Shown in pieces: positions 2,842 to 63,277 of a stretch of 64,000 nt of DNA (position 1 is the stretch's first letter; each line of letters starts with the position of its first letter). The translations under genes were made by a program, and so were the position numbers. Where the stretch lies: positions 7,152 to 71,151 of the forward strand of contig CAIKXY010000004.1 in the NCBI GenBank assembly GCA_903831595.1, written 5' to 3'. The DNA is from an uncultured bacterium. Its GTDB lineage: Bacteria > Patescibacteriota > Minisyncoccia > Phycocordibacterales > GWA1-40-21. The notes under the pieces were generated by a model. The model was given only the letters and a program-made list of their open reading frames with translations, was not told where the DNA came from and searched no databases.

Positions 2842-5800
2842 ATGGAAGGTGGACCAAAAAATACAAATGAATTAGAAAAACAGGCCTTGATTGATGAGGT
2901 GGTATTAAATCTTAAAGGTGGTTTTATTGATAAAGCTTATAAAATTATAAAAGATAAGCCATTTGCTGATGAAATTATTAAATTACCCATAATACAGAAA
3001 CTCGCAACTGAAGAAATGGTAAGTAAAATTGATTATTTAAAATTTAATGACGCTATTAGAGTTAAAAAAATTTATGATATTCCGGATAAAGTAATAGAGT
3101 CCAAAGATATACAACTCAGTATTAAAAAAAGTGTTTTTTCTTTATTAAGTTACTCATTGATTTTTAATGATAATTCAATTAGGGAAAATAATAAATATTT
3201 ACCTCTAATAACAAATGATGAAATTAAAAAAGAGATAATACTAAAAATTACGGATGCTATGGGTCATACTGACCTAATCAAGCAATTAGAAAATATAGCA
3301 GAAACATTTTCTATACCTGATAAAATAATTAATTCTCCGGAAGTACAAAAATCGGCAATAAAATCCATGATTTCAAATATTGATATTGGTAACTTTGATA
3401 TATTCATAAAAATAAAAAATAAATTTAATATTTCTGATGAAATTTTAAATTTAAATAAAATATACAAATCAGTAATTAGCGGAGTGAAACGTTGTATAGA
3501 ATCAAATTATAAAGATAAAGAATTAGCAGGTATTATTAAATATTTTAATGTCCCCCAAAATGAAATACAGAAAATTGCTATAAAAGCAATGATAGATACA
3601 TTTGTTAGTGACAGTAAAAATAATGAGTATAGTGAATATAAAAAAATTATAAAAAAATATTCTATATCTGATGAAATATTAAAAAAAATTAAAACACAAC
3701 ATGAAGTTTTAGATAAATTACTAAATGATGATTTTTTTCAACCAAAATTGATTCAAAAAGTTAAAGAGGCATTTTTTATTACTGATGAAACCTTAAAATC
3801 GCAAGGTGTCAAAAATATTGTTATCAATAGTATTGTGAATTCGCTTGCAGATGACAATGTTAATAGATTTATAAAAATTAAAAAAGCCTTTAAAATATCA
3901 GACAATGAACTAATATCTCCTGATATACAGCAAACTGGTTTGAAAAAAATATACGCAAATTTTTCTGATAATTATAAAGGTAGTTTTTCAGGAATTATAA
4001 ATCTAATTGAAAAATTATCTATTCCTGACGAAATATTAAATTCTAAAGAAATGCAGAGAAATGCTATTGATGGTATAGCACACAAACTTAATGATTTTAA
4101 AGAAGAAGGTAGCTCTTACATACTGAAGATAATTGATAAATTTCAAATAAATGATGACGTACTAAAATTACCAAGGATACAAAAAGCAGCAAAAAATGCT
4201 GTAATTAATTGCATATATTACTGGGATTCAAATGGGGCTTTGGAAATAATAAAAAGATTTGGATTATCAAATGAATTATTAAAATCTTCTAAAGCTCAAA
4301 AAACTATTATGACTAGTATTGGGCTTTCTCTTAGTCAAGGTTTCATTGATACTGCATTAGAAATACAAAAAAAGTTTTCAATAAGCGATGATATATTTAA
4401 ATTACCCGATATGCAAAAATATATTATTGATGGAGTCACTTATTTATTAAGTATTAATCATGGCAGAGAAATTGACCAAGTAGTAAAAATGCTAGAAAAA
4501 TTTCAAATCAATAAAGATATTTTATCTAAAATGTTAACAGAAGATATAATCAGTTTTTTAGTAAATTACGGCCGTGCTCCTGAATATGTAAAGAGAATCC
4601 AATCATTATCATTGTCTGATAAATTATTTCAGTCCACTGAAATACAAGAGGTAGCAATTCAAACTATAATTAATAAATTTAAAGATAATAAATATGTTGA
4701 TGCATTGGAAATAATAGAAAGACTAAATGTTGAGATTCCAATAGAAAAGCTATTTGCTTTGCTTCCAAAATTTAAAAAATTAATAATTGAAGTTGAAAAA
4801 ATATATCCGAAATTGAAAGAAAAAATATACAAATCAAAATCATCTGAATTAAAGTATGAACTAATAAAAATATCAATTAAAAATTCTGATACAAAAGAAT
4901 TTATTAGTGCAATTAAAGATAATCCGTTTTTAATGGATGCCGTTGATAGAAATGAACAGTATGGCCCACACCTTCTAGCTAAATACATTGAATTTGATGG
5001 ATATTCAAAAGAAAATATTTCAATGCTTTTTGATACAAAAAAGAAAATTATGTCTGAGAATCCTGATATTGACCCTGAATCAGTTGAATTTAGAATATTA
5101 ATGCAAGAATCGTTGATGGATTTCAAAGATAATAAAAAGATTATTGCTGAAATAGAGAAGTCAGGAATAAAATCACAAGAGTGGTTAAACTACGAAGAAA
5201 CAACGAATTTCACACTAAATTCAGCAGAAGGAACACTTTCTTTTGCAGAAACAGTACAAACTCCATTAAATAGAATAAAAGAAACTATTGGTAGTTATTC
5301 AAATAAGATAAAAGAAGTTCTCAAACAATACATTGAAGAACTCAAAAAAGCACAGATTCCGATTGAAGATGCATCACAAATACAGTCACAGATACAAAAG
5401 ATGGAGAGTGAGTTAGAAAAAGCCAAGGTAGAAGGTAATGAGAGAAAAGTGCAGGGGATTGAAAAAGGATTATTGGGAATGAGAAAGAAACTTGAAACAA
5501 TCAAAACTGTTTCAGTTTGGGAAAAAATACTTAGTGACATTAGTGGATTTGATATGTTGAAGAATGATATCTCTTCTGCACAAGAAAAACTTACTGATGC
5601 TGAAAACCAGATTTATTCAGCAATGTCCGAAAAAGAACCGTCTGGCAAAAAGATTACCGAACTCAAAAAGATTTTGGGCGATTCAAAACGTGATTTCCAG
5701 GATAAATTTATGATGCTTGGAAAAAGAATTGCTAATTTCAAAGAAAGTTTGCTTGATAGACTATCATCTCTTGGCAAAGAACGTGCAGAATCATTAATCC

Positions 5801-28953: not shown

Positions 28954-28984
28954 ATTTTTCCCCGAGGTGGAGCCTCGGGGAAGT
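28954..28984. repeat. 31-bp perfect direct repeat, copy 1 (ATTTTTCCCCGAGGTGGAGCCTCGGGGAAGT), containing an 8-bp-stem palindrome
   Basis: Identical to 29371-29401. A related inverted variant, GCCGAGGCTCTACCTCGGC, lies at 28923-28941. Confidence 0.7.
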
Positions 28985-38323: not shown

Positions 38324-38770
38324 ATGAAGATTATACTTATCAAAGATGTCAAAAAAATTGGGAAAAAATATGAAATAAAGGAAGTCGCAGATGGCTACGC
38401 GCTGAACGCCCTTATCCCTTATGGACTTGCAGTACCTGCAACACAAAATTATTTAAAAGGAATCGAGGAAAGAAAGAAAAGAGATGCAATTTTAAAAGAA
38501 GATTTCAAAAAAGCTTTTGAATATGCAGTTAGTAAACTTCCAGACGGCAAGCTTCACATAAGTGGAAAAGTAAATGAAAAAGGACACCTTTTTGCTGGTA
38601 TTCATGAAGGGCAAGTAATTGATGAATTTAAGAAAGAAACTGGAGTTATTCTTTCTCCAGAACATTTTGATCTAGAAAAACCAATCAAAGAGGTTGGAGA
38701 ACATCCAATTGAGTTAAAAGTTGAAGGTCAAGTCTACAAACTAAATATTGTAATAAAAGCAGGGAAGTAA
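38324..38770 (+). CDS. rplI: 50S ribosomal protein L9
   Basis: Starts [32 protein letters not shown], typical of bL9. Confidence 0.9.
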
Positions 38771-38782
38771 GTTAATAAAATA

Positions 38783-38820
38783 CAAAAAGGCGGCGCCGTT
38801 GGCGCCGCCTTTTTGTATTT
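38783..38820. terminator. bidirectional rho-independent terminator between rplI and rpmA
   Basis: AGGCGGCGCC-gtt-GGCGCCGCCT hairpin flanked by an A-run and a T-run. Confidence 0.75.
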
Positions 38821-47271: not shown

Positions 47272-50200
47272 CTAATTATATAATAAATTTTTTCTTTTAT
47301 CACCCTTACCACGACGAATAGTAAAAATGGTGCCAATATAAACCAACGCTACAAAAATACCTAATAATAAAATGTTTTGTAAGTTAAGTATTTTTGCTAC
47401 AGAAAATATCGCCTTTAATTCAAGATTCATAAATACCCCTTTGCTCTCATCCACCTGGAATGGATCTCCTTTGTAATCTACGTACCCGTCAAGATGTGCT
47501 GTCATATAATATATACCAGCAGGGACAAGGAATGAGTATCTGCCTGTTACATCCGTCGTCTGTGGATTGGTTTGTCTATAATCTTTTGCTGGCCATAATT
47601 CATAATTTTTTGTCTTTGGATTTTGCCAATAAATAGATACTTCAACGTTATTCAAACGAGTTTCTTTTCCATCTGATTGTTTTTCATAAACATACCCCTC
47701 TGGGTCCACCAAAACGACCATGCTTATTTTTTCTGGAGCTTTTGACGCTGCTTTGAAATTGACGACTGTCCTCAATTCATATTGACCAATTGCAAGTGGT
47801 GATGCAACATCTGCTGTCCAAATACCATCGACATTTTCTTTATAATTAAATTTGGTCAAAACAAGATCTGTTTCACTTGTAATTCCTGAGTCATTTGTTT
47901 GAGTACCCTGACTTTCACCAATTATTGTACTTGCGACTGTTGCGACTTGTGAAAGAGTAGATTTCTTTGAAACAGCATTTGATTTGAATATAATATAACC
48001 TTGAATATTTTTTGCTGGTGCTGTTGGTTTTACAATAAGCTTCATTGTCTGGCCTTGGATTGTATTTAGGGTTTGTAATGCCAAACCATCATTTCCGATT
48101 GAAAGTTTTACATTCAAGTCTATCTTTTCATCTTGCGTTCTTGCAAAAACTATACCTGTAGGTATTTTAGCTTTTTGTGTATCAGATAAGCTAGCTATTG
48201 GTAAAGTATTTGAAGATAGTGTAGCTGCTTCCGTAATACCTGGTAATGATATAGGATTTGCATTCAACTTTAATATGGAATTCATATTATTTACTCCAAT
48301 TTTACTCAAAGCCGAACTTACTTCAGGAAACTTAGAAACAATATCCGTGTAATCACTTGGGAGTTTGGTATTAATTAAATCTGTCAAAGAAGAAGGAGTT
48401 ATAATTTTCCACGAATTTAATATTGCAAATGGCGCGACGGAAGGGAGTGTTGTCTTAACTTCAGTAAGTGCAAGTGGTTCTATTTTCTTTGGTGGAAGAA
48501 TTACCGTAAGAATATCAGCAGTTGTACTTGCTATGTTTCCGACAATACTTTGCGTTGTATTTGATATACTATTTATTATAGAAACAGTAGAAAGAGTAAT
48601 TGATTGGGACACTGCTGGTGAAGAAATTCCTTGTGCATCTAGAAATTTAGCATAAACATAATATTTTCCGTCTGGACATGTTGTACTATTTTGACATAAA
48701 TCATAAGTGGTTGTTGTTATATTATTTGCGGAATATGGAATGGTAACAGTATTTGTGAAATCTGGATTATTGGAAAAGATTATTGCAGTTGCACTACCAA
48801 GCTGATCTGTAGAAAATTGCAAAGTTACTTTTCTGTCATCTGTTGTCCATGCTCCACCGTTTATAGATACGGAATATCTTGGAGAGGATGAACCACCTCC
48901 AGATATAGAACTGAGTGATGAGCTTGCAGTTGTATAATTTTTTCTTCCTGATGGTACTGCATATGTCATATGTGTAGCAGAGGATGACGTGTCTTTATTA
49001 CCAAGATAATCCTGACATGCTATATAGACATTCTTAGGTCCTGGAGTCCCAAGAGTAGGTAGTATACAAGACATTTGTATTCCATTATTTACAGAACAAG
49101 ATACTCCAGAGGACATTTGATCATACGATTGCGCTGTATCGGAAACTACAAGACGACAATCTCCTACTTTACTCAAAGTAAATGTGACTAGATTTCCAGT
49201 ATAAATATTTGAATTATCAACAGGACTAATGTTTGAAATTGTAGCTAGTGTTTTGTCTATATTAATTATTCTAGAAACTATTGTTTGAATATTTCCAGCA
49301 TTATCAATAGAAGAATATCTGAAATAATTTGTACCTCCATTTGAAACAACTACTGATGCAACATAGCTAATGCTTGGTGTACAGGTATTAGCGTTATCAA
49401 TACAATAACTGGTAGTTGCAATTCCGGATGTTGTATCAGCTGGATTTAAGGTAATTGTAATATTACTATTTGTCCATGCGCTGTATGTATAAGGTTGGGT
49501 TTGACTTGTCACAGCTGTATCTGTTGTCATTGGTGCAACAGTATCTATCTTTACAATCCTACTGACCGTGGTTTGTATATTGTTAGCATTATCTTCTGAT
49601 GCATAACGGAAATATGAAATACCTTCAAATGGTATAACTACTGGAGCAGAATAATCTGTACCATCAGCTGGAGAGCATGTGTTATTTGTATCAACACAAT
49701 ATCTAGTCCATAAAATTCCAGAACTTGGTGCAGGATCATTTGGTGTCAAAGTAATTGTCTGATTGCCATTTACCCAAATATTATTGTTTGTAAAATTATC
49801 AGATGTATTTGGTGCTGTTTTGTCTACATGTCTATGTCCTGTTATTATTTGTCCTGAATTACCAGCGATATCAACTGGGAAATATTTCAAAACATAATCT
49901 CCTTCTGATGTAATAGTAAACTGCCAGCTTGATGATGCCTCTACATATTGTGATGCAAGACTTGGATTTGTATTATCAGTTGTATAGTAAATTCTGTAAC
50001 AACCAGAACCAACTACTCCATCATCACAGGTGAAAGTAACTGTGCTTGCATTTGCAAAAGTAGATGTTGCAACAGTTACTGTTGGTAATTGATTATCAAA
50101 CTTCAAGTCATTTGAATCTGTATATATACTGGTAGTGTTTCCTGCAAAATCATTTGCTTTATATCTCAGTACAGAATCACCTTCTGTAGAGTACGTAAAT

Positions 50201-53200
50201 GCAAATGATGTACCAGATGTTGCATAATTTGTATCTGGAGTACATGGAGTAGTTGAAGCTAAATATGTACAATAATAAACTTGATTACAACCGGATGTAC
50301 TATCAGTACAACTCAAAGTGACAACAATTGGACTTGTATGCCAATTGTTATCAGCATTAGATGATACTGATGATGGTGCTACTGTATCCCATGTCAAACT
50401 AAATGTAGATGAAGCTAAATTACCTGCATTGTCTGTTGCAAGAAGTTTAATTACATATGTACCATCTGTATTAGCAGAAATTGTTGTGTTTGCTGATGTT
50501 GATGAACCAAAAGTAATTGTCCCTGGTCCAGAAACTTTTGACCATAGATACGATGCTATTCCTGAAGTGAGGTCACTAGAGCTAGCACTTGTTGTAAATG
50601 TAGAGCTTGAAGTCATGTTTGAACCAGCACTTACAACTGGAGATGTCGTGTCCCAAATTAGGTTGAATGTTGATGAAGAAGAGTTACCTACATTATCAGT
50701 CACAAGAAGTTTAATTACATATGTACCATCTGTGTTTGCAGAAATTGTTGTGTTTGCTGATGTTGATGAACCAAAAGTAATTGTCCCTGGTCCAGAAACT
50801 TTTGACCATAGATACGATGCTATTCCTGAAGTTACATCACTTGCAGTGGCCGTTGTTGTAAATGTAGAATTTGCAGTTTTGTTTGCACCGGCATTTACTG
50901 TTGGTGGTACAGTATCAACAGTAAATGTACTAGTGGCTGCATTTGCATTAGATGTTGTATTACTATAAGCATCAGTTGCTCTTACATATATCGTATGACT
51001 TCCATCCGCAAGCGTAGAAGCAGTGCAACTAAATCCTTCCGTAGAAGAATTAAAAGCTCCATCAGCTGCAGTACAGTTTATCCAGCTGCCACTCGTTCCA
51101 TCGATTTGATATTGAACATTCGAAACTATTCCTGGATTTGAAAGTGTCCCTGCATCAGTAGATGTTCCGTAAATAGTTGGCGTAGTATTACTCGTGAAAG
51201 CAGCGACACTACCTAAATTAATTGTTGGTGGAGTAATATCAAAAGTCCAGTTTGTATTTCCGCCACCATCAACACAACCAGTGGTACAAAGAAATGCGGT
51301 AGAACTTAAATTTGTTGAGCTTGCGACGTTTAGATATGATAGATTGGTTGTACCAGCTCCGGTTTGGACAAGATTAAAAGTATTTGCAAGAAAATATGAA
51401 CTAGTTGGTGGCGTAAAGTTTGAAGTCCAACGAGCAACACCTTTTGATATTCTAAATTCATCTAAATGTCCATCTAAATAATAAGGACTTCCTGTATAAT
51501 AACCTTCCCACCCAATACGAAGTGGAGTAGATGGTGTATATATAGTGGCTGTGAAAGTGGTACCTCCAACATTTTGTAACACCCCATTAACAAAGAAATA
51601 TATCTTTCCACCTGTTCTTGAAATAGCAATATGGTACCAAGTATTGGTAGAAAAAGCATAAGATACACCTAGTGTGGTAGCAGAGCTTCCTGTTGTAGTG
51701 TACGCAAATTGAAGATGTGTTCCATCTTGCATATTTACATTAAAAGAAAAATCATTAGCACTCACCTCTTGCCCATAAAATGTTACAAAATGGTAAGAAC
51801 CGCCAGTAGAATTTAATCTAACTCTAAAATCTATAGTAAAATCACCCGACCCTAAATTAAAATCGGAACTTGCTGGAGTACTTATATATTTATTTACTGG
51901 AAAATTTCCCGACGCTCCTCCGAATACACTTGTAGAAGTATCAATAGTGCTACTATAAGATGTAAAAGTGTGAAGACCAGATGAACTATCTGTAAAGGTA
52001 GAGGAATTGTTTGCTCCATCCATATGCAACATTAATTTTGTATAACTATCTATTCCACCTGGAATTGGACTAATACTTAAAAGATTATTGAGAGCACCAT
52101 TTAGTGTAAGGTTATTTGTTATTGTAGTTGTATTTAAAGAATCAAGAAGTAAAGATGTTGCTGCTGATGTTGTTTTGGTCAAATTATTAAAAGAATTTGC
52201 ACCAATAATTGATTGTGCTGTTCCATTCAAATTTACACTTCCACTATTACTTGAAAAGGTACCTCCGGAATTTGTCCAGTTGCCACCAACATTAAGCGTA
52301 CCAGATGGAGCTGTAAATGTTCCAGCAGAAAGTGTTAAATTTCCTGGGATTGTTAAATTACTAGTTCCTACAGTGAATGTCCCTCCGGAACCATTAATAG
52401 TCAAATTATTATAAGACCAGTCTTTGATTGCTCTTGTACTTGTAGTCGCCGTATAAGTCACAGTTGAACTAGTAAGGGTTGGCGTGGCAAGTGCACTACC
52501 ACCAACAGCAGTTTCATCCCCAGTAAGTTTAAGATTTGCACTAACATTAAATACGGTCGGAGAAAATTGATACCCAGCTAAATTCAAAGTTCCACTTCCA
52601 GATACTGTAGTAGTTGCAGAATATTGATTTCCTACAAGTGTAACAGTGTTTGAATCAATAGTTGCAATATCATATGGACCAGGATACGCGACGCCTTCTA
52701 TTGTTCCTGATGTTCCCCATGTGGTACTCGCCTGCCAATTACCATTTGCGACGTCATTAAATGTTGTTGGTGCAACAGAACCTCCGTCATTAATGGTCCA
52801 TCCTTTTGCAACAATTGCTGCACGAGCAGTTGCTGGTGTGCCAGTATAATATTGCGATGAACCACCAGTAAAGGTTACGGGGCTTTTTAATGTTTGTGTA
52901 GACCAACCTTGTAAAATTTTACTATAATTTATCGTTGATAATGTATCCCCAGTAAACATGTTTGACATATTTGTAGAACTTGAAACAACCCAATTACCCA
53001 AATTTTGGTTAAAAGCAGAGTCAAATCCAAACATATAATTCATGGTAGTAACTTTGGCTGTATTCCATCCAGAAATATTTTGATTAAATGCACTGTAGTA
53101 AAACATCTGTGACATGTCAGTAACATTCGAAGTATTCCAATTACCTATTGAAGAACTAGCGGCATTGTTAAAAACACCACCAGCACCAGAAAACATGCCA

Positions 53201-55992
53201 CCCATATTTGTAACATTTGAAACATCCCATGAACCCACATTTTGATTAAATTTGGCATCACCGTTAAACATAGAGTACATGTCAGTAACTTTTGAAGTGT
53301 TCCATTTTGAAACATCATAATTAAATTTAGTACTCATAAACATGTAACGCATACTCGTAACATTACCTGTGTTCCAATTTGAAAGATCTTGATTAAAATT
53401 GCTATCATTTCCAAACATACTGGCCATGCTTGTAGAACTTGCTGTATTCCATCCAGAAATATCCTGATTGAATTTTGACTGGTAAAACATCTGTGACATG
53501 TCAGTAACTTTTGATGTATTCCAATTACCTATTGGTTGATTAAATACAACAGTTTGACCGTTGTTATAAAAAACACCTTGCATATTGGTGACATTGCCTG
53601 TATTCCAAGTGTTAATGTTTTGATTAAAGCTATTAGCTGAATCAAACATGTAGGCTATATTTGTAACATTACTTGTATTCCAACTACCGATTGGTTGGTT
53701 AAATAATTTTGTATATTCAAACATATAACTCATATCTGTGGTACTTGCGGTTACCCAATTATTTATTGTTGATGAGCTAGCGTTATTAAATGCAAGAGCA
53801 CTATCAAACATATGTGCCATATTTATCACTTTACTTGTATTCCATGCGCCTAGGTTTGCATCAAACAAATTAGTGTTTTGAAACATATAACTCATATTTG
53901 TAACATTTCCAGTATTCCATCCGCTTATGTCTTGATTGAATGACCCAGCACTATCAAACATATGTGCCATATTTGTTACATTAGACATATCCCAGCTGTT
54001 GATTGACGGTATTGATGTAATTGAACCAGCCCCATCAAAAGCATAGGACATGTTTGTTGTCCCCGTCATGTCTAATGTGTCAGTAGCTGTAATTGTTAAA
54101 TTTGGAGCACCGTAAAAGTATGCCCCACTATTACCAAGTTTTAATATCCCCCATTGACTGATATTTTTTATTTTTCGGTAATCACCAGTATAATTGAAAC
54201 AAATACTTGTTGGTGTTCCTGTAATACTAATAGTGACTGAAGTTGTGCCTGTATTTCCACCAGTGTATGTGTGCGTAGCAGTACTACTTGTACTATTGTC
54301 TCCCCAATCTACAACATATGTTCCAGTTATAGGTAAAACAATAACGCTTGAAGCACTCCCCGCTTTTGTAGTATCCCACGTAGAAATAAAAGGATTGGAT
54401 GGATCCACAACATAATCCACATCTATATTCCCAATAACCTTGAGGTCAAACATGTCTGTGGGAGTTTGTAGGTTTTGTAGAAGTATTCTGTATTTACCAT
54501 TATGATTAATATTATCAAAATTTGGATTTACATTATCATCAACTAAAGCAAGTTGTGGTCCTTCTGTTTGATCACCATTTGCATCTGTGTAAACTGGGTA
54601 AACTTCTATACTTGCTGATGTAGTTGTACCAGATGGTCTTGCATAAATAGTAATGTCATTTTTGTTGGATAAAATAGAATTGAAAGTTGTACGTATATAT
54701 TGTCCATCATTGATGGTAGCGTAGTTTCCATCTTTAGTTGCTACTGTGTCATAGATATCTGCAAGAATACTTTGGTCTGTATCAAGCTGGAAAGCTTTTG
54801 ATATGAAAATAATTTCAAATGTTTGTGTTGAAAGGTGTGGAACTGTCCATTCTACATAGTCGAGCCATCCATCTTTGTTTAGGTCATATGCCTTAAAAAC
54901 AACATTTTGGTCGCCGTTGTTCACCCATTTTATTTTTATCTTATCTTCTTGGCCTACTTTATATATTTTGGGAATGTTTGTAAATGCTAGAACATCTGTT
55001 ATTTGTGTTTCTGGGGTATCTGTAGCAGAGATTGTAACAATCTTTCCTGTATCTGTATTTGCTTCTGTAATAGTTGGTGCTGGAGTCTCAAATGTGACGT
55101 CTACTGTTGTTGATGCAGTAGATGTTCCTGTAGAAGTAGCAGTTGATTGATCAGAGCTTGTGGATGTTGTTGATGAAGATTGTGAATTGTCAGTTGAGGT
55201 GGATGTAGTTGTAGTTGATTGATCTATGGTTGTTGATGCAGAGGTGGTTGATTGATCTTCGGTCGTTGACGCAGTTGTAGTTGATTCATCTTCTGTTGTT
55301 GAAGCGGTAGATGAAGATTGTGAATTGTCAGTTGAGGTGGATTGTACTGATGCAGAATTATCTGGAGTTAGAGTAGAAGAATTATCTGTAGGTGTTGGTG
55401 TTGGTGTTTGATCTGGTGTTGGTGAAACTACTGGTGCAACATCGACAACAGTTGTCTCTGGTTCTGGTGCTGGAGCTACAGCATCTTCAACTGTGGCAAA
55501 CATATTTGATATTGTGTTTGCAATATTATGGAATATTTTTCCCAAAAAACTTAATTTTTTATTTGCTGCAGCATTTTGTTGTTTTATTTTTTCTGCAAAT
55601 TCAAGTGTAGAAGTAGAGTGTATTCTTTTTGCAGCTAATGCTGAAAGTTTCTTTCTGTCTGCATTTGTGAGTTTGGAAATTTTTATTTTAGAAATATTTT
55701 TTAGGGTTGAAGTAGAGACTGTGACTTTTGTTGCAACTTTTGGTATCTCTACTAGGTGTGAGTCTTTATTAATTTGATTTACTGCAATTTTCTTTATCCA
55801 TTTGATTGGCTGGCCTGGGGCTGATGGAATTTGAGTGATAGAAAAGCCTTTCACTATACTGCTAGTAACTTGTGAATTGTTTTGTAAGCCAGAAATTTTA
55901 TAGACACCAAAGACAACAAGAAAAATAGCAATAAAAAAACCAAGAATAGTGCCTGATTTCTTGATTATTTTTAATAAACTGTCTTTAGTCAT
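47272..55992 (-). CDS. giant cell-surface protein (2,906 aa): N-terminal TM/signal, S/T-rich linker, DUF285/BspA-type repeats, beta-helix-like region, LamG/concanavalin-like domain, repeated Ig/CHB_HEX-C-like domains, C-terminal CarboxypepD_reg-like domain and TM anchor
   Basis: Continuous ORF. An FISTW...VDWGDNS...QWG leader is followed by about 14 repeats of the type WNTSNVTNMSYMF (aa 540-1075). LamG-like region KLMLHMDGANNSS...LDEFRISKGVARW. Duplicated Ig-like units. C-terminal hydrophobic helix followed by RRGKGDKRK. Confidence 0.8.
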   Translation of the reverse strand: MTKDSLLKIIKKSGTILGFFIAIFLVVFGVYKISGLQNNSQVTSSIVKGFSITQIPSAPGQPIKWIKKIAVNQINKDSHLVEIPKVATKVTVSTSTLKNISKIKISKLTNADRKKLSALAAKRIHSTSTLEFAEKIKQQNAAANKKLSFLGKIFHNIANTISNMFATVEDAVAPAPEPETTVVDVAPVVSPTPDQTPTPTPTDNSSTLTPDNSASVQSTSTDNSQSSSTASTTEDESTTTASTTEDQSTTSASTTIDQSTTTTSTSTDNSQSSSTTSTSSDQSTATSTGTSTASTTVDVTFETPAPTITEANTDTGKIVTISATDTPETQITDVLAFTNIPKIYKVGQEDKIKIKWVNNGDQNVVFKAYDLNKDGWLDYVEWTVPHLSTQTFEIIFISKAFQLDTDQSILADIYDTVATKDGNYATINDGQYIRTTFNSILSNKNDITIYARPSGTTTSASIEVYPVYTDANGDQTEGPQLALVDDNVNPNFDNINHNGKYRILLQNLQTPTDMFDLKVIGNIDVDYVVDPSNPFISTWDTTKAGSASSVIVLPITGTYVVDWGDNSTSSTATHTYTGGNTGTTSVTISITGTPTSICFNYTGDYRKIKNISQWGILKLGNSGAYFYGAPNLTITATDTLDMTGTTNMSYAFDGAGSITSIPSINSWDMSNVTNMAHMFDSAGSFNQDISGWNTGNVTNMSYMFQNTNLFDANLGAWNTSKVINMAHMFDSALAFNNASSSTINNWVTASTTDMSYMFEYTKLFNQPIGSWNTSNVTNIAYMFDSANSFNQNINTWNTGNVTNMQGVFYNNGQTVVFNQPIGNWNTSKVTDMSQMFYQSKFNQDISGWNTASSTSMASMFGNDSNFNQDLSNWNTGNVTSMRYMFMSTKFNYDVSKWNTSKVTDMYSMFNGDAKFNQNVGSWDVSNVTNMGGMFSGAGGVFNNAASSSIGNWNTSNVTDMSQMFYYSAFNQNISGWNTAKVTTMNYMFGFDSAFNQNLGNWVVSSSTNMSNMFTGDTLSTINYSKILQGWSTQTLKSPVTFTGGSSQYYTGTPATARAAIVAKGWTINDGGSVAPTTFNDVANGNWQASTTWGTSGTIEGVAYPGPYDIATIDSNTVTLVGNQYSATTTVSGSGTLNLAGYQFSPTVFNVSANLKLTGDETAVGGSALATPTLTSSTVTYTATTSTRAIKDWSYNNLTINGSGGTFTVGTSNLTIPGNLTLSAGTFTAPSGTLNVGGNWTNSGGTFSSNSGSVNLNGTAQSIIGANSFNNLTKTTSAATSLLLDSLNTTTITNNLTLNGALNNLLSISPIPGGIDSYTKLMLHMDGANNSSTFTDSSSGLHTFTSYSSTIDTSTSVFGGASGNFPVNKYISTPASSDFNLGSGDFTIDFRVRLNSTGGSYHFVTFYGQEVSANDFSFNVNMQDGTHLQFAYTTTGSSATTLGVSYAFSTNTWYHIAISRTGGKIYFFVNGVLQNVGGTTFTATIYTPSTPLRIGWEGYYTGSPYYLDGHLDEFRISKGVARWTSNFTPPTSSYFLANTFNLVQTGAGTTNLSYLNVASSTNLSSTAFLCTTGCVDGGGNTNWTFDITPPTINLGSVAAFTSNTTPTIYGTSTDAGTLSNPGIVSNVQYQIDGTSGSWINCTAADGAFNSSTEGFSCTASTLADGSHTIYVRATDAYSNTTSNANAATSTFTVDTVPPTVNAGANKTANSTFTTTATASDVTSGIASYLWSKVSGPGTITFGSSTSANTTISANTDGTYVIKLLVTDNVGNSSSSTFNLIWDTTSPVVSAGSNMTSSSTFTTSASSSDLTSGIASYLWSKVSGPGTITFGSSTSANTTISANTDGTYVIKLLATDNAGNLASSTFSLTWDTVAPSSVSSNADNNWHTSPIVVTLSCTDSTSGCNQVYYCTYLASTTPCTPDTNYATSGTSFAFTYSTEGDSVLRYKANDFAGNTTSIYTDSNDLKFDNQLPTVTVATSTFANASTVTFTCDDGVVGSGCYRIYYTTDNTNPSLASQYVEASSSWQFTITSEGDYVLKYFPVDIAGNSGQIITGHRHVDKTAPNTSDNFTNNNIWVNGNQTITLTPNDPAPSSGILWTRYCVDTNNTCSPADGTDYSAPVVIPFEGISYFRYASEDNANNIQTTVSRIVKIDTVAPMTTDTAVTSQTQPYTYSAWTNSNITITLNPADTTSGIATTSYCIDNANTCTPSISYVASVVVSNGGTNYFRYSSIDNAGNIQTIVSRIINIDKTLATISNISPVDNSNIYTGNLVTFTLSKVGDCRLVVSDTAQSYDQMSSGVSCSVNNGIQMSCILPTLGTPGPKNVYIACQDYLGNKDTSSSATHMTYAVPSGRKNYTTASSSLSSISGGGSSSPRYSVSINGGAWTTDDRKVTLQFSTDQLGSATAIIFSNNPDFTNTVTIPYSANNITTTTYDLCQNSTTCPDGKYYVYAKFLDAQGISSPAVSQSITLSTVSIINSISNTTQSIVGNIASTTADILTVILPPKKIEPLALTEVKTTLPSVAPFAILNSWKIITPSSLTDLINTKLPSDYTDIVSKFPEVSSALSKIGVNNMNSILKLNANPISLPGITEAATLSSNTLPIASLSDTQKAKIPTGIVFARTQDEKIDLNVKLSIGNDGLALQTLNTIQGQTMKLIVKPTAPAKNIQGYIIFKSNAVSKKSTLSQVATVASTIIGESQGTQTNDSGITSETDLVLTKFNYKENVDGIWTADVASPLAIGQYELRTVVNFKAASKAPEKISMVVLVDPEGYVYEKQSDGKETRLNNVEVSIYWQNPKTKNYELWPAKDYRQTNPQTTDVTGRYSFLVPAGIYYMTAHLDGYVDYKGDPFQVDESKGVFMNLELKAIFSVAKILNLQNILLLGIFVALVYIGTIFTIRRGKGDKRKNLLYN
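50420..50947. repeat. tandem duplication (two ~264-bp units, about 85-90 percent identical with a near-identical ~140-bp core) inside the giant surface gene
   Basis: DNA units begin TTACCTGCATTGTCTGTTGCAAGAAG and TTACCTACATTATCAGTCACAAGAAG. They encode the duplicated Ig-like segment SYLWSKVSGPGTITFGSSTSANTTISANTDGTYVIKLL. Confidence 0.8.
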
Positions 55993-59295: not shown

Positions 59296-60693
59296 TTATT
59301 TTTTCTTTTTTATTTCAATTCCCAACTCTCTTAGTTGCTCTGTTGAAACTTCTGTGGGTGCATCCATCATAAGATCTCTGCCCTCCCCAGTTTTTGCAAA
59401 AGCAATTACCTCACGGATATTTGGTTCGTTTTCTAAAATCATAATCATTCTATCGAGTCCCCAGGCAATTCCACCATGCGGAGGTGTCCCGGTTTCAAAC
59501 GCTTTAAGCATATGACCATATTCTCTTTCAATTTTTACATCATCAAAATCCATAATTTCAAGAACTTTTCTTAAAGCTTCTGGTCTATGATTTCTAATGC
59601 TTCCACCACCCATTTCATTGCCGTTTAAAGCAAGGTCATATTGTGCTGCCATTATTTTTTCAATATTTTTTTTGGCCATTAAATCATCAAACGACTCTGT
59701 TTTTGTTGCTGAAAATGGATTGTGCGTAAATGTCCATTTTCCATTATCTGCTTTTTCAAACATAGGAAAATCTACAATCCAAGCAAAAGCTAGCAAATCT
59801 TTATCATTTTTGTCTTTTCTTATATCTGGTTTATCTGTTCCATATTTTTCCATAGCTTCTTTATAAGAAATTTTTGGGAAAGGAATTTCCTGGATTTTTT
59901 TATGAGGATAAAGTTTATTTATTATTTCAATTATAATTTTTTCATTAACATTCATTACATCTTCTTCTGTTGCAAAACTCATTTCCAAGTCCATCTGAGT
60001 AAACTCTGGCTGTCTGTCGCCTCTTGAATCCTCATCTCGAAAACATCTTGCAAATTGAAAATACTTTTCAAACCCAGAAGCCATCAAAAGTTGTTTATAT
60101 TGTTGTGGAGATTGTGGAAGAACATAAAATTTTCCTTGTTCAAGTCTTGAAGGAATTATAAAATCTCTTGAACCTTCAGCGGTTGCTTTTGTAAGATTTG
60201 GGGTTTCAATTTCACAAAAACCTTCTTTTTCTAACAAAATTCTTGTGAGTGTCATGACCTTGCTTCTATTTCGAATATTTTTCTGCATTCTTGGTCTTCG
60301 TAAATCCAAATATCTGTATTTCAAACGAGCGTCCTCACCAATTTCAATTCCGTCAGAACGCACATCAATAGCTGGAGTAATTGCTTCATTCAAAACATTT
60401 ATAGATAAAACTTCAATTTCGACACCACCATTTAATTCATCTTTATTTACCATTTTTTCAGGGCGGGCATTTACTTTTCCAGAAACTTCAAGAACCCATT
60501 CTGAACGAACGGTGTTTGCTAAAGTGTGAGCTTCTTTATGGTTTGGTAATGCAACCATCTGAACTTTTCCAGACATGTCGCGAAGGTCAATAAAAATAAG
60601 TTTGCCGTGGTCACGTCGAACATCCACCCAGCCACAGATTTTTACTTCCTCTCCAACCTTCTTATTTAATTCTCCAATGTATGTTCGTTGCAT
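59296..60693 (-). CDS. aspS: aspartate--tRNA ligase (short form, apparently lacking the GAD insertion)
   Basis: N-terminal OB fold (CGWVDVRRDHGKLIFIDLRD). Class II motif 2 (FRDEDSRGDRQPEFTQMDLE) and motif 3 (GGGSIRNH...GTPPHGGIAWGLDR). Start set at an internal ATG (MQRTYIG...). The upstream ORF extension overlaps the T-box leader. Confidence 0.85.
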   Translation of the reverse strand: MQRTYIGELNKKVGEEVKICGWVDVRRDHGKLIFIDLRDMSGKVQMVALPNHKEAHTLANTVRSEWVLEVSGKVNARPEKMVNKDELNGGVEIEVLSINVLNEAITPAIDVRSDGIEIGEDARLKYRYLDLRRPRMQKNIRNRSKVMTLTRILLEKEGFCEIETPNLTKATAEGSRDFIIPSRLEQGKFYVLPQSPQQYKQLLMASGFEKYFQFARCFRDEDSRGDRQPEFTQMDLEMSFATEEDVMNVNEKIIIEIINKLYPHKKIQEIPFPKISYKEAMEKYGTDKPDIRKDKNDKDLLAFAWIVDFPMFEKADNGKWTFTHNPFSATKTESFDDLMAKKNIEKIMAAQYDLALNGNEMGGGSIRNHRPEALRKVLEIMDFDDVKIEREYGHMLKAFETGTPPHGGIAWGLDRMIMILENEPNIREVIAFAKTGEGRDLMMDAPTEVSTEQLRELGIEIKKKK

Positions 60694-60699
60694 AAAAAT

Positions 60700-60890
60700 T
60701 TTAATTAATCTATTAAAAACAAATCGCCCTCGCAAGAACCGAAAATATTTTCGATTTTTGCGAGGGCGAACGAGTCGCGGTGCCACCTCACTTACTTCTC
60801 ATTTATGGGTTCTACTTGCCAAAAGGCTTTCTTCCCAAGCTCCGCTGTTGTTTTCAGCATCAACGCTTATATCTATATAATACAACTATT
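60700..60890 (-). promoter_or_regulatory. T-box riboswitch leader upstream of aspS (T-box sequence plus intrinsic terminator/antiterminator)
   Basis: The minus-strand RNA contains AGGUGGCACCGCGACUCG (T-box consensus GGUGGNACCGCG). An 11-bp terminator stem CGCCCUCGCAA / UUGCGAGGGCG with a 22-nt loop follows immediately, then AUUUGUUUUU, 20-30 nt before the aspS start. Confidence 0.6.
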
Positions 60891-60891
60891 A

Positions 60892-61887
60892 TTAATAAAT
60901 TTCCACTCCCACTTTCTCTCTTACATCCTTCATTTTCTTTTCTGCATTTGCTGATGCTTTTTTGGCACCATTTTTAAGAATTTCAAAAACTGCATCCAAA
61001 TCTTTAGCTAATTTTTCTCTTTTTTCTCGCATTGGTTTTATAAAGGCAGACAAATCTTTTATGAGTAACTCTTTTGCTTCTTTATAACCCATTCCTCCTT
61101 TTTGGTATTTTTCTCTCAAAGTTTTTTGTTTATCTGTGTCCAAAAGTAATTTATGAATTGCAAAAATAATTGACTCATCTGGATTTTTTGATTCAGCCAC
61201 ACCTTTTGAATCTGTTGGAATTTTCATCACCAGTTTTTTTATTTCTTCATCAGTAGCAAAAAGTGGAATTTCATTGTCATAACTTTTACTCATTTTTCTT
61301 CCATCTATTCCAGGAACAGTTTCTACATTAGAAAGAATCAGTGGTTCTGGTAATCTAAAAGTCTCTCCAAAAATTCTATTAAACTTTTGCGCTGTGTCTC
61401 TTGCATATTCCACGTGCTGTTTTTGATCTTGCCCCACAGGAACGATATCTGCATCCTGCATCAAAATATCTGAAGCCATAAGCATTGGATAATCAAAAAG
61501 CCCAACATTTATTTCTTTATTTTTTGCTTCAGCATCTTTGAAAGCATGTGCACGCATCAGATAAGGCATCGTTGTAAGACAATTAAAAATCCAAGTGAGT
61601 TCTGTCACTTGTGGAATATCGGATTGTTTAAAAAGTGTAATTTTCTTTGGATCAAGTCCTATCGCTAAATAATTTAATGCGACATCAATAATCCCTTGCT
61701 TAAGCTCTTCTTTATTTTGGACTGTTGTCATTGCATGATAATCGGCAATAAAAATATAGCTTTCATATTTATCTTGGAGGTCTACCATTTGTTTCATCGC
61801 TCCAAAGTAATTTCCAATATGAACTCTACCTGTTGGTTTAACTCCTGATAAAAGGATTTTTTTATTATTTATTTGATTTATTTTCAT
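60892..61887 (-). CDS. trpS: tryptophan--tRNA ligase
   Basis: HIGH-class motif (SGVKPTGRVHIGNYFGA) and KMSKS. Confidence 0.9.
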   Translation of the reverse strand: MKINQINNKKILLSGVKPTGRVHIGNYFGAMKQMVDLQDKYESYIFIADYHAMTTVQNKEELKQGIIDVALNYLAIGLDPKKITLFKQSDIPQVTELTWIFNCLTTMPYLMRAHAFKDAEAKNKEINVGLFDYPMLMASDILMQDADIVPVGQDQKQHVEYARDTAQKFNRIFGETFRLPEPLILSNVETVPGIDGRKMSKSYDNEIPLFATDEEIKKLVMKIPTDSKGVAESKNPDESIIFAIHKLLLDTDKQKTLREKYQKGGMGYKEAKELLIKDLSAFIKPMREKREKLAKDLDAVFEILKNGAKKASANAEKKMKDVREKVGVEIY

Positions 61888-62110: not shown

Positions 62111-63109
62111 ATGTCACAGGTTATTTTGTCAGGTATACGAGCAACCGGAAGACTACATTTTGGTAATTTTCTCGGCGCAGTTCAAAACTTTGTAAAGTTT
62201 CAAGAGCAAATCGATGCTACCTGCATGTATTTTGTGGCTGATTGGCACACATTAACGACCCTTAAGGATCCGGAGGTATTGCGTTCAAACTTGATTGAGA
62301 TGATTAAGGATTATATTGCAGCTGGGCTCGATCCAAATAAGTCAATAATTTATACCCAATCAAGCATTCCAGAGATTGCTGAGCTAGCTTTATATTTGAG
62401 TATGTTTCAGCCAATTAATGAGCTGAACCTTATTCCTACTTATAAAGAATTGGTTCGCAAAAATCCAGATCAGGTGAGTCTTGGACTCCTGTCATATCCA
62501 ATCCTTATGGCAGCAGATATCCTTGGTCCACGGGCAACAATGATCCCCGTTGGAGAGGATCAAATACCAAATGTGGAATTGGCCCGATCACTTGCTCAAC
62601 GTTTTAATCGTCGTTTTGGAGAAATATTTGTAATACCAGAGATGATGGAGCAAATGATAAAAGTTCCTGGTCTTGATGGTAACAAAATGGGTAAATCAGA
62701 TAATAATTCCATTGAGATTGGTGCACCAATGAATATTATTGGTAAGCTGTACATGAAAAAAGGTATTACCGATCCAGAAAGAAAACACTTGATGGATTTG
62801 GGTGATCCTTATAACCGTTGTAAATCAGTTTACGGAATTCATGAGCTCATTACTCAAGATGAAAAAGATCTCCGCGTCATTGCAAACAAATGCATGAAAG
62901 CTGAAATTAGCTGCGTTGAATGCAAAAAGATATTAGTCGAAAGTATCGCAAAGATACTTATACCTTTTCAAGAAAAAAGGAAAGAATTAACTGATAAGGA
63001 TGACTATGTGAGTGAAATACTTTACGAAGGTGGAAAACGAGCTCGTTCAATAATTGCAAAAACTGTAGCGGTTGTTCGAGATAAAATGGGGATCGTTCTC
63101 TACAGTTAG
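62111..63109 (+). CDS. tryptophan--tRNA ligase paralog (TrpRS-II) with a C-x23-C-x6-C-x2-C putative Fe-S motif
   Basis: SGIRATGRLHFGNFLGA and KMGKS motifs. C-terminal Cys motif NRC...(23 aa)...CMKAEISCVECKK. RBS GGAGG. Third-position GC is visibly higher than in neighbouring genes. Confidence 0.85.
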   Translation: MSQVILSGIRATGRLHFGNFLGAVQNFVKFQEQIDATCMYFVADWHTLTTLKDPEVLRSNLIEMIKDYIAAGLDPNKSIIYTQSSIPEIAELALYLSMFQPINELNLIPTYKELVRKNPDQVSLGLLSYPILMAADILGPRATMIPVGEDQIPNVELARSLAQRFNRRFGEIFVIPEMMEQMIKVPGLDGNKMGKSDNNSIEIGAPMNIIGKLYMKKGITDPERKHLMDLGDPYNRCKSVYGIHELITQDEKDLRVIANKCMKAEISCVECKKILVESIAKILIPFQEKRKELTDKDDYVSEILYEGGKRARSIIAKTVAVVRDKMGIVLYS

Positions 63110-63203: not shown

Positions 63204-63277
63204 TGGCGGACGCGGTGGGACTCGAACCCACGGTACTGGTTTTGGAGACCAGAAGTTTACCACTAACCAACGCGTCC
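63204..63277 (-). tRNA. tRNA-Trp (anticodon CCA)
   Basis: Reverse complement GGACGCGTTGGTTAGTGGTAAACTTCTGGTCTCCAAAACCAGTACCGTGGGTTCGAGTCCCACCGCGTCCGCCA. Anticodon loop CTCCAAA, a 7-bp acceptor stem, and an encoded 3' CCA. Confidence 0.85.

Follow-up and report, generated by a model that had tools for sequence, protein, structure and literature searches.

What lies between trpS and aspS, two aminoacyl-tRNA synthetase genes that follow one another on the minus strand of contig CAIKXY010000004.1? The 64-kb stretch of this contig that we analysed (the window; all coordinates are counted from its first letter) has a gap between trpS (60892-61887) and aspS, the gene for aspartyl-tRNA synthetase (AspRS), and an earlier note, made from the sequence alone, had taken this gap to hold a T-box leader. 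T-boxes are regarded as mainly a feature of Firmicutes and Actinobacteria; the host of this locus is a Patescibacteria bacterium, a member of the candidate phyla radiation (CPR). With a probability of about 0.9, we read the leader (60868-60715, minus strand) as a putative transcription-attenuating T-box riboswitch of compact, non-canonical architecture that would control aspS. The sequence elements, the two alternative structures, the covariation of the helices, the register of the codon and the link to AspRS genes on which this reading draws are all computational observations. The features of the leader are collected in the table below.

The T-box sequence AGGUGGCACCGCGACUCG stands at 60788-60771 on the minus strand, 5' of aspS as the earlier note had proposed. 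Its exact core GGTGGNACCNCG has a single occurrence in the window, and the chance expectation with one mismatch allowed is 0.37. Two one-mismatch matches to the core, at 28966 and 29383, gained no support from the covariance model R1 described below and were rejected. The T-box bulge begins with UGGC, which is complementary to the GCCA 3' end of a tRNA. A long terminator hairpin and a U tract come directly afterwards, where the same note had seen them, and the 5' arm of the terminator reuses the 3' strand of the antiterminator (60769-60760), so that the two structures are mutually exclusive.

Both structures are recovered by minimum free energy (MFE) folding, and the proposal that the leader can form either of them therefore stands. 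The full leader folds at -57.7 kcal/mol (z = -4.7), a stability matched by none of 200 shuffled sequences, and its fold is dominated by the terminator hairpin. When the 3' arm of the terminator is withheld, the MFE structure consists of Stem I, Stem II and the antiterminator with its 7-nt UGGCACC bulge. The terminator is worth about -33 kcal/mol, compared with -7.4 kcal/mol for the antiterminator alone. MicroRNA and snoRNA families of Rfam also matched the terminator hairpin, far below their thresholds, and these were set aside as generic hairpin matches.

The check suggested for this locus was the covariance model of the Rfam T-box family, RF00230, and its outcome was divided. A targeted scan of 60600-61000 gave a significant match (60872-60759, 30.2 bits, E = 4.6e-5), but this is well under the gathering score of the family, 93 bits; at that score RF00230 has no match anywhere in the window, in which only two tRNAs pass Rfam thresholds. 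The alignment retains the K-turn base of Stem I and the entire antiterminator, while dropping 72 distal positions of Stem I and most of Stem III. The low score is explained by the ultrashort Stem I, which is 31 nt long. Seven of the nine relatives that were scanned score 29-47 bits and the other two have no match at E <= 0.1, so the whole group is invisible to threshold-based annotation.

The case for function is made entirely by comparison, and there it is strong. We assembled 80 aspS loci from species-representative genomes, which together with the window make 81 Paceibacteria loci and 598 kb. The exact T-box core is found in 24 of the 80 loci, 21 of which have it within ~275 nt upstream of aspS, the rest having it further off or on the opposite strand. 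Sixteen leaders were aligned and five helices annotated by hand to produce the covariance model R1, and a search of the 598 kb with R1 returned 25 matches at E < 1e-4, each upstream of an AspRS gene. Two weak R1 matches (E ~0.1) were dismissed as chance; the one of them that was inspected lies in the window (38683-38811, 18.5 bits, E = 0.12) and is made up of a gene end and an ordinary terminator.

In the model-based alignment of these 25 leaders, 95.8% of the cells fall in standard pairs, a share that drops to 36-48% if the 3' partners are shifted by 1-3 columns. Compensatory changes are present in 17 of the 21 pairs, and the observed values were reached by none of 500 shuffles; an alignment made with MAFFT only agrees (93.7% paired, 16 of 21 pairs with compensatory changes). 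The signal is spread over the whole leader: helices 1 and 2 of Stem I are 93% and 92% paired, with compensatory changes in six of their seven pairs, while all five pairs of the Stem II basal helix and six of the nine pairs of A1 and A2 show such changes. The motifs GAA...AGUAGAA are kept in every leader that possesses Stem II, and the bulge reads UGGC in 23 leaders and UGGU in two. Three near-identical strains from other metagenomes carry the same leader as the window, with a compensatory change in the apical helix of Stem II from GCC/GGC to ACC/GGU. Of the 25 leaders, 23 have a terminator with a U tract; its folding energy lies between -14 and -35 kcal/mol, and in 20 of them between -20 and -35. 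The simple antiterminators of these homologues fold at -5 to -11 kcal/mol.

The related leaders differ from one another in several respects. Stem II is missing from four of them (L011:778-863, L048:2828-2917, L059:2845-2929 and L063:615-707), in which the sensor, counted from the foot of Stem I to where the antiterminator ends, is only 85-93 nt long and the purine-rich linker measures ~23-35 nt; these may be the smallest natural T-boxes. By eye, many of the relatives with a GAC codon show an H-type pseudoknot after Stem II. At L045 (~2760-2830) and L053 (~2765-2830) the 3' arm of the terminator is replaced by an unrelated insert and the sensor domain is intact, L053 being otherwise identical to L055. 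In eight loci (L019, L029, L041, L055, L058, L059, L063 and L078) the 3' arm of the terminator contains GGAG(G/A)GG and the U tract is followed by CUCC, an extra covarying pairing which takes the form GAAG...CUUC at L063 and is absent from the window. L201-L203, which are 96% identical to the window, have a hairpin of ~33 nt (CCGUCAAAAUUU...UUUUCUUCGG) inside the A2 loop of the antiterminator, and a similar hairpin precedes the antiterminator at L001 (~450-485); the window has neither. This hairpin looks like a small insertion element tolerated by the leader. At L004, where the bulge is UGGU, an open reading frame (ORF) of 196 aa within 554-1144, weakly similar to a C39-type peptidase, lies between the T-box (191-303) and aspS.

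Which tRNA would such a leader read? The codon is placed in the apical loop of the ultrashort Stem I and not in an internal specifier loop. The only invariant positions of this loop are A-C-A, preceded by A or G, and the pattern NN-[A/G]AC-A holds in 24 of the 25 leaders. AAC (Asn) occurs in 11 of them (the window, L001, L002, L004, L009, L010, L041, L052, L053, L055 and L058) and GAC (Asp) in 13; the last, L006 (2558-2753), a close relative, is aberrant, with a rearranged Stem I, the loop UAAAAA and the bulge UGGU, and could be either Lys-reading or degenerate. When metagenome contigs were scanned with a pattern and then searched with R1, further aspS leaders came up, together with leaders of the same compact architecture directly upstream of isoleucyl-tRNA synthetase (IleRS) genes (ileS). 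These ileS leaders (L136:2299-2423 and L082:1042-1155, both on the minus strand, and also L084 and L095) have the loop UUAUCA, with the Ile codon AUC, and the bulge UGGU, and their terminators are followed by a U tract. As AUCA occupies the same loop position, they fix the register independently: the codon takes loop positions 3-5 and is followed by A. On these comparative grounds, the specifier of the window leader is very probably AAC (Asn), the one of the two codons considered by the earlier note, Asp and Asn, that fits a non-discriminating AspRS.

The placing of the codon also agrees with published structures. It falls at about nt 17-19 of the leader, and the specifier is at nt 16-18 in the actinobacterial ileS structures (PMC7583486). 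It ends in C, matching the ‘C rule’ of the Stem II S-turn, by which a specifier codon ending in C is predicted (PMC7583486). Stem II and the linker of the L082 ileS leader are nearly the same as in the window aspS leader, which suggests that these two leaders are paralogous T-boxes in which specifier and discriminator bases, and with them the specificity, have been swapped. The closest named IleRS fragments to the genes behind the ileS leaders come from Patescibacteria (weak taxonomic hints, obtained with a 59-aa IleRS query), and the low-GC metagenomic contigs that bear these leaders are probably of patescibacterial origin too.

An Asn codon before an AspRS gene can be understood from what a T-box detects, namely the esterification of the tRNA 3' end and not the identity of the amino acid (PMC7583486). 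Since acylation alone is sensed, an Asn specifier on aspS reports the step that AspRS catalyses on tRNA-Asn. Genomes without AsnRS take a two-step route, in which a non-discriminating AspRS first attaches Asp to tRNA-Asn and GatCAB then amidates it (PMC4206432); in this setting, uncharged tRNA-Asn is as direct a measure of AspRS activity as uncharged tRNA-Asp. AAC and GAC leaders are mixed on the AspRS tree, with ~4-5 switches required, and L045 (GAC) and L058 (AAC) are sister taxa; this interleaving fits a non-discriminating AspRS. At L041, an AAC T-box is followed by an archaeal-type aspartate--tRNA(Asn) ligase (NF003483, 480 bits, cut-off 353) and then by a bacterial-type aspS, an arrangement that fits the logic of an Asn codon on aspS. 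The tandem of archaeal-type non-discriminating and bacterial-type AspRS (1664-2962 and 2962-4413) thus stands behind one Asn-specifier T-box. Taken together, the comparisons lean towards a non-discriminating AspRS in the window, serving the synthesis of Asn-tRNA-Asn by way of GatCAB, and we regard this as rather probable. The window AspRS scores below the cut-off of the non-discriminating AspRS profile models. An Asn-specific T-box connected with tRNA-dependent asparagine formation has reportedly been described in Clostridium acetobutylicum.

The following mechanism may be proposed from these elements. Transcription would begin at a dedicated promoter, with a predicted start near 60870 at the foot of Stem I, and read-through from trpS could also enter the leader. 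Of the 25 leaders, 19 have a -10-like hexamer 5-8 nt before Stem I (22 if 3-10 nt is allowed), and in the relatives a TTG-type -35 hexamer is often found ~17 nt upstream of the -10. The nascent RNA would fold the 31-nt Stem I, with its K-turn, 5-bp helix and 7-nt loop displaying AAC and the following A, and then Stem II with its S-turn. AAC would be read by the GUU anticodon of tRNA-Asn, a pairing probably buttressed by the purines of Stem II; without a distal platform, the tRNA elbow would be left uncontacted. An uncharged tRNA would pair its GCCA 3' end with the UGGC of the bulge and hold the weak antiterminator (60791-60760), allowing the polymerase to read into aspS. If the tRNA carries any amino acid, be it Asp or Asn, the antiterminator would not be stabilised, and the stronger terminator (60769-60724 and the U tract) would be expected to stop transcription.

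The loop AAAACAA also contains the triplets AAA, ACA and CAA, and a T-box presenting one of these would respond to tRNA-Lys, tRNA-Thr or tRNA-Gln instead. L006, with the loop and bulge given above, would suit a tRNA-Lys with A73, although its rearranged Stem I may be degenerate. However, AACA is the sole part of the loop common to the 11 Asn-type leaders, in which the two preceding bases vary (AA, CA, CC, UU or AU), and it stands exactly where the 13 Asp-type leaders have GACA and the ileS leaders AUCA. The bulge UGGC would fit G73 of tRNA-Asn and tRNA-Asp and would be unsuited to the A73 typical of tRNA-Lys, and the regulated genes are AspRS genes, all of which makes a specifier other than AAC very unlikely. 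Decay would be another way to account for a leader from which the elbow platform, the pseudoknot and Stem III are missing. The hairpin would then be no more than the intrinsic terminator of trpS, for which there is no separate terminator within 60892-60770, and aspS would be expressed constitutively by read-through or from another promoter. The T-box is indeed missing at 56 of the 81 aspS loci, where aspS abuts the upstream gene or follows a plain AT-rich spacer, trpS and aspS being directly adjacent in some, and the terminators of L045 and L053 are disrupted. A remnant is nonetheless hard to reconcile with helices that are every one maintained by compensatory changes, both across the 25 leaders and in a close strain, or with a codon, trailing A, UGGC and K-turn GA that are invariant or nearly so. 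The codon, moreover, changes with the regulated gene, being Asp or Asn before AspRS genes and Ile before IleRS genes, and a constitutive terminator of -33 kcal/mol before an essential gene would be deleterious without antitermination. We consider decay even less probable than a different specifier.

There is precedent for control of translation, through sequestration of the ribosome-binding site: all T-boxes with an ultrashort Stem I described so far have been classed as translational, and those with an apical specifier are mostly ileS T-boxes of Actinobacteria (PMC7583486). The 3' arm of the window terminator does contain GAGGG. This motif, with ~35 nt between it and the start codon, is too distant for a Shine-Dalgarno sequence, and the hairpin itself ends ~30 nt before the AUG, with no Shine-Dalgarno sequence in between; the leader does not sequester such a sequence in the way the actinobacterial class does. 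With a U tract behind the hairpin in 23 of the 25 leaders as well, translational control is the least likely of these alternatives, and a transcription-attenuating T-box remains the reading that we prefer.

Several observations weigh against that preferred reading, as does the ambiguity of the loop discussed above. The leader scores 30 bits against the 93 demanded by Rfam, and the window sequence belonged to the training set of R1. Taken by itself, the sensing domain folds no more stably than shuffled sequence does (z = +0.1 to +0.5). At the A2 pair adjacent to the bulge, 22 leaders have G-C, three have A-U and none has the G.U wobble, which has been described as the steric sensor of T-boxes (PMC7583486). 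Transcriptional T-boxes are held to need the elbow-binding platform of Stem I, and a truncated Stem I to need both Stem II and the IIA/B pseudoknot: it hardly binds tRNA without Stem II, and deletion of the pseudoknot costs about 1,200-fold in binding (PMC7583486). The window leader has no tRNA-elbow platform (a distal Stem I with interdigitated T-loops), given that a 7-nt loop ends Stem I and the RF00230 alignment deletes 72 positions. The Stem IIA/B pseudoknot and Stem III are likewise absent, RF00230 aligning 2 nt to the 17-position Stem III region, and with all three missing efficient co-transcriptional capture of tRNA is not assured. No tRNA-Asn or tRNA-Asp gene was found in the window or in 60 related loci. 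Neither asnS nor gatA nor gatB was among the 10 large window ORFs scanned, and 64 kb cannot show genome-wide absence.

The gene downstream is well defined. AspRS matches the bacterial aspS equivalog NF001750 (623 bits, in two stretches) from residue 1 at ATG 60693. All 120 homologues listed cover the query from this ATG, nearly all of them being 463-470 aa long, and they align from MQRTY, its first residues. The earlier note was right to regard the longer N-terminus of the aspS ORF as an artefact of translating the leader.

Table. Coordinates of the T-box leader, its putative promoter and the regulated gene, with the basis on which each feature was assigned.
Feature	Coordinates	Strand	Basis
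-35-like hexamer TGGAAA, within the 3' end of trpS	60900..60905	minus	promoter scan, consensus match only
-10-like hexamer TATTAT	60877..60882	minus	promoter scan
Ultrashort Stem I, 31 nt	60837..60868	minus	MFE fold, RF00230 alignment, covariation
Stem I base helix AAGC/GCUU	60868-60865 with 60840-60837	minus	
K-turn: bulge GUU, tandem G.A pairs	60861-60860 against 60842-60841	minus	5' GA invariant in leaders, flanking helices covary
Stem I upper helix UGCUG/CAGCG, 5 bp	60859-60855 with 60847-60843	minus	
Stem I apical loop AAAACAA, 7 nt	60854-60848	minus	
Very probable specifier codon AAC (Asn), followed by conserved purine A60849	60850..60852	minus	loop register across leaders
Stem II	60807..60836	minus	MFE folds, covariation
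Stem II base GGG/CCC	60836-60834 with 60809-60807	minus	
Stem II S-turn internal loop AAGAAA / AAGUAGAA; apical hairpin GCC-UUUU-GGC	within 60807..60836	minus	
Purine-rich single-stranded linker AUAAAUGAGAAGUAA, 15 nt	60792..60806	minus	unpaired in folds
Antiterminator	60760..60791	minus	RF00230 alignment, MFE folds, covariation
Antiterminator helix A1	60791-60786 with 60765-60760	minus	100% paired across 25 leaders
Antiterminator helix A2 GCGA/UCGC	60778-60775 with 60769-60766	minus	98% paired across 25 leaders
T-box bulge UGGCACC, 7 nt	60785-60779	minus	flanked by A1 and A2
Terminator hairpin CGCCCUCGCAA...UUGCGAGGGCG, 46 nt, 20 bp with one internal mismatch	60724..60769	minus	MFE fold
U tract UUUGUUUUU of intrinsic terminator (after the hairpin: AUUUGUUUUU)	60715..60723	minus	direct reading
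Spurious N-terminal ORF extension translating the leader, from GTG 60786 (MAPRLVRPRKNRKYF...)	60694..60786	minus	homologue lengths and alignment start
aspS, 465-aa bacterial-type AspRS, regulated gene	59296..60693	minus	start ATG 60693

Proteins that share 72-96% identity with the window AspRS carry the names Patescibacteria, Paceibacterota, Minisyncoccia or Taylorbacteria, and the host is a Paceibacteria/Taylorbacteria-like member of the Patescibacteria. The GAD insertion domain is said to define bacterial AspRS, yet this protein, bacterial-type by profile, has 465 aa and no GAD domain, and the same is true across the whole clade. aspS opens a run of genes on the same strand (HIT, scpA, GNAT, scpB and others). 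The aminoacyl-tRNA synthetase genes identified in the window are two trpS, gltX and aspS, and a T-box precedes aspS only. The two TrpRS paralogues (60892-61887, minus, and 62111-63109, plus) are divergent and 35% identical, one with KMSKS and the other with KMGKS; the pair adjoins a gene for tRNA-Trp(CCA) at 63204-63277 on the minus strand, and neither trpS has a T-box. Such a duplication of TrpRS is an unusual redundancy in a reduced genome. The window also contains a very large ORF of 2,906 aa (47272-55992, minus) for so small a genome.

What is new here is a terminator-type compact T-box with an Asn specifier in a CPR genome, and a family of aspS and ileS leaders that standard tools miss. 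A search of the full-text literature found no paper on T-boxes in Patescibacteria or the candidate phyla radiation, Parcubacteria and Saccharibacteria included. The T-box database TBDB ran its class II model only on Actinobacteria and on class I matches with a truncated Stem I (PMC7778990), and the compact leaders are probably absent from T-box databases too. T-boxes are now seen in ultrasmall, host-dependent Patescibacteria, at scores so far under the Rfam threshold that this form is missing from routine annotation. We suggest tentatively, as a possibility a little short of an even chance, that Patescibacteria carry an unannotated class of compact, terminating, platform-less T-boxes on aspS and ileS, some of them also without Stem II.

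If the compact leaders work, contacts with the anticodon and the 3' end alone would suffice for co-transcriptional tRNA sensing. This would contradict the view that transcriptional T-boxes need contact with the elbow and that a truncated Stem I needs Stem II and the pseudoknot, and the leaders without Stem II would be the smallest natural T-boxes. The compact leader offers a natural test of which tRNA contacts co-transcriptional sensing requires, and a very small scaffold for the engineering of tRNA-responsive switches. The interchange of Asp and Asn specifiers on aspS may serve as comparative evidence for non-discriminating AspRS in reduced genomes, and the supply of aminoacyl-tRNA appears to be among the few things that such genomes still regulate.

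How does the leader compare with known systems? It shares with canonical transcriptional T-boxes (RF00230; Bacillus subtilis tyrS and glyQS) the core features of the class: the UGGN bulge, A1 and A2, a competing terminator with a U tract, a K-turn at the base of Stem I, a codon ending in C followed by a purine, the S-turn of Stem II and an aminoacyl-tRNA synthetase gene downstream. Unlike them, it has a Stem I of 31 nt rather than about 85-100, a codon in the apical loop rather than an internal specifier loop, and a G-C rather than G.U pair in A2; it lacks the double T-loop platform, the IIA/B pseudoknot and Stem III, stays under the Rfam threshold, and comes from a patescibacterial host. The Asn T-box of Clostridium acetobutylicum resembles what we propose for the window leader, as it reportedly reads tRNA-Asn and governs the indirect route to Asn-tRNA-Asn. 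That T-box is reportedly a long canonical Firmicute leader before a multi-gene operon, whereas the window has a minimal leader before a single bacterial-type aspS without GAD. The closest likeness in shape is with the ultrashort-Stem-I ileS T-boxes of Actinobacteria (Mycobacterium, Nocardia; 6UFG, 6UFM; PMC7583486), which also combine a K-turn with a short helix, present an apical specifier followed by A, do without an elbow platform and include an S-turn in Stem II. Those T-boxes are translational, sequester the ribosome-binding site and depend on the IIA/B pseudoknot (PMC7583486); the window leader, in contrast, has a terminator with a U tract, no pseudoknot, and aspS with an Asn codon. It combines a terminator-based, kinetic switch with a platform-less ultrashort Stem I, two things that the field treats as separate.

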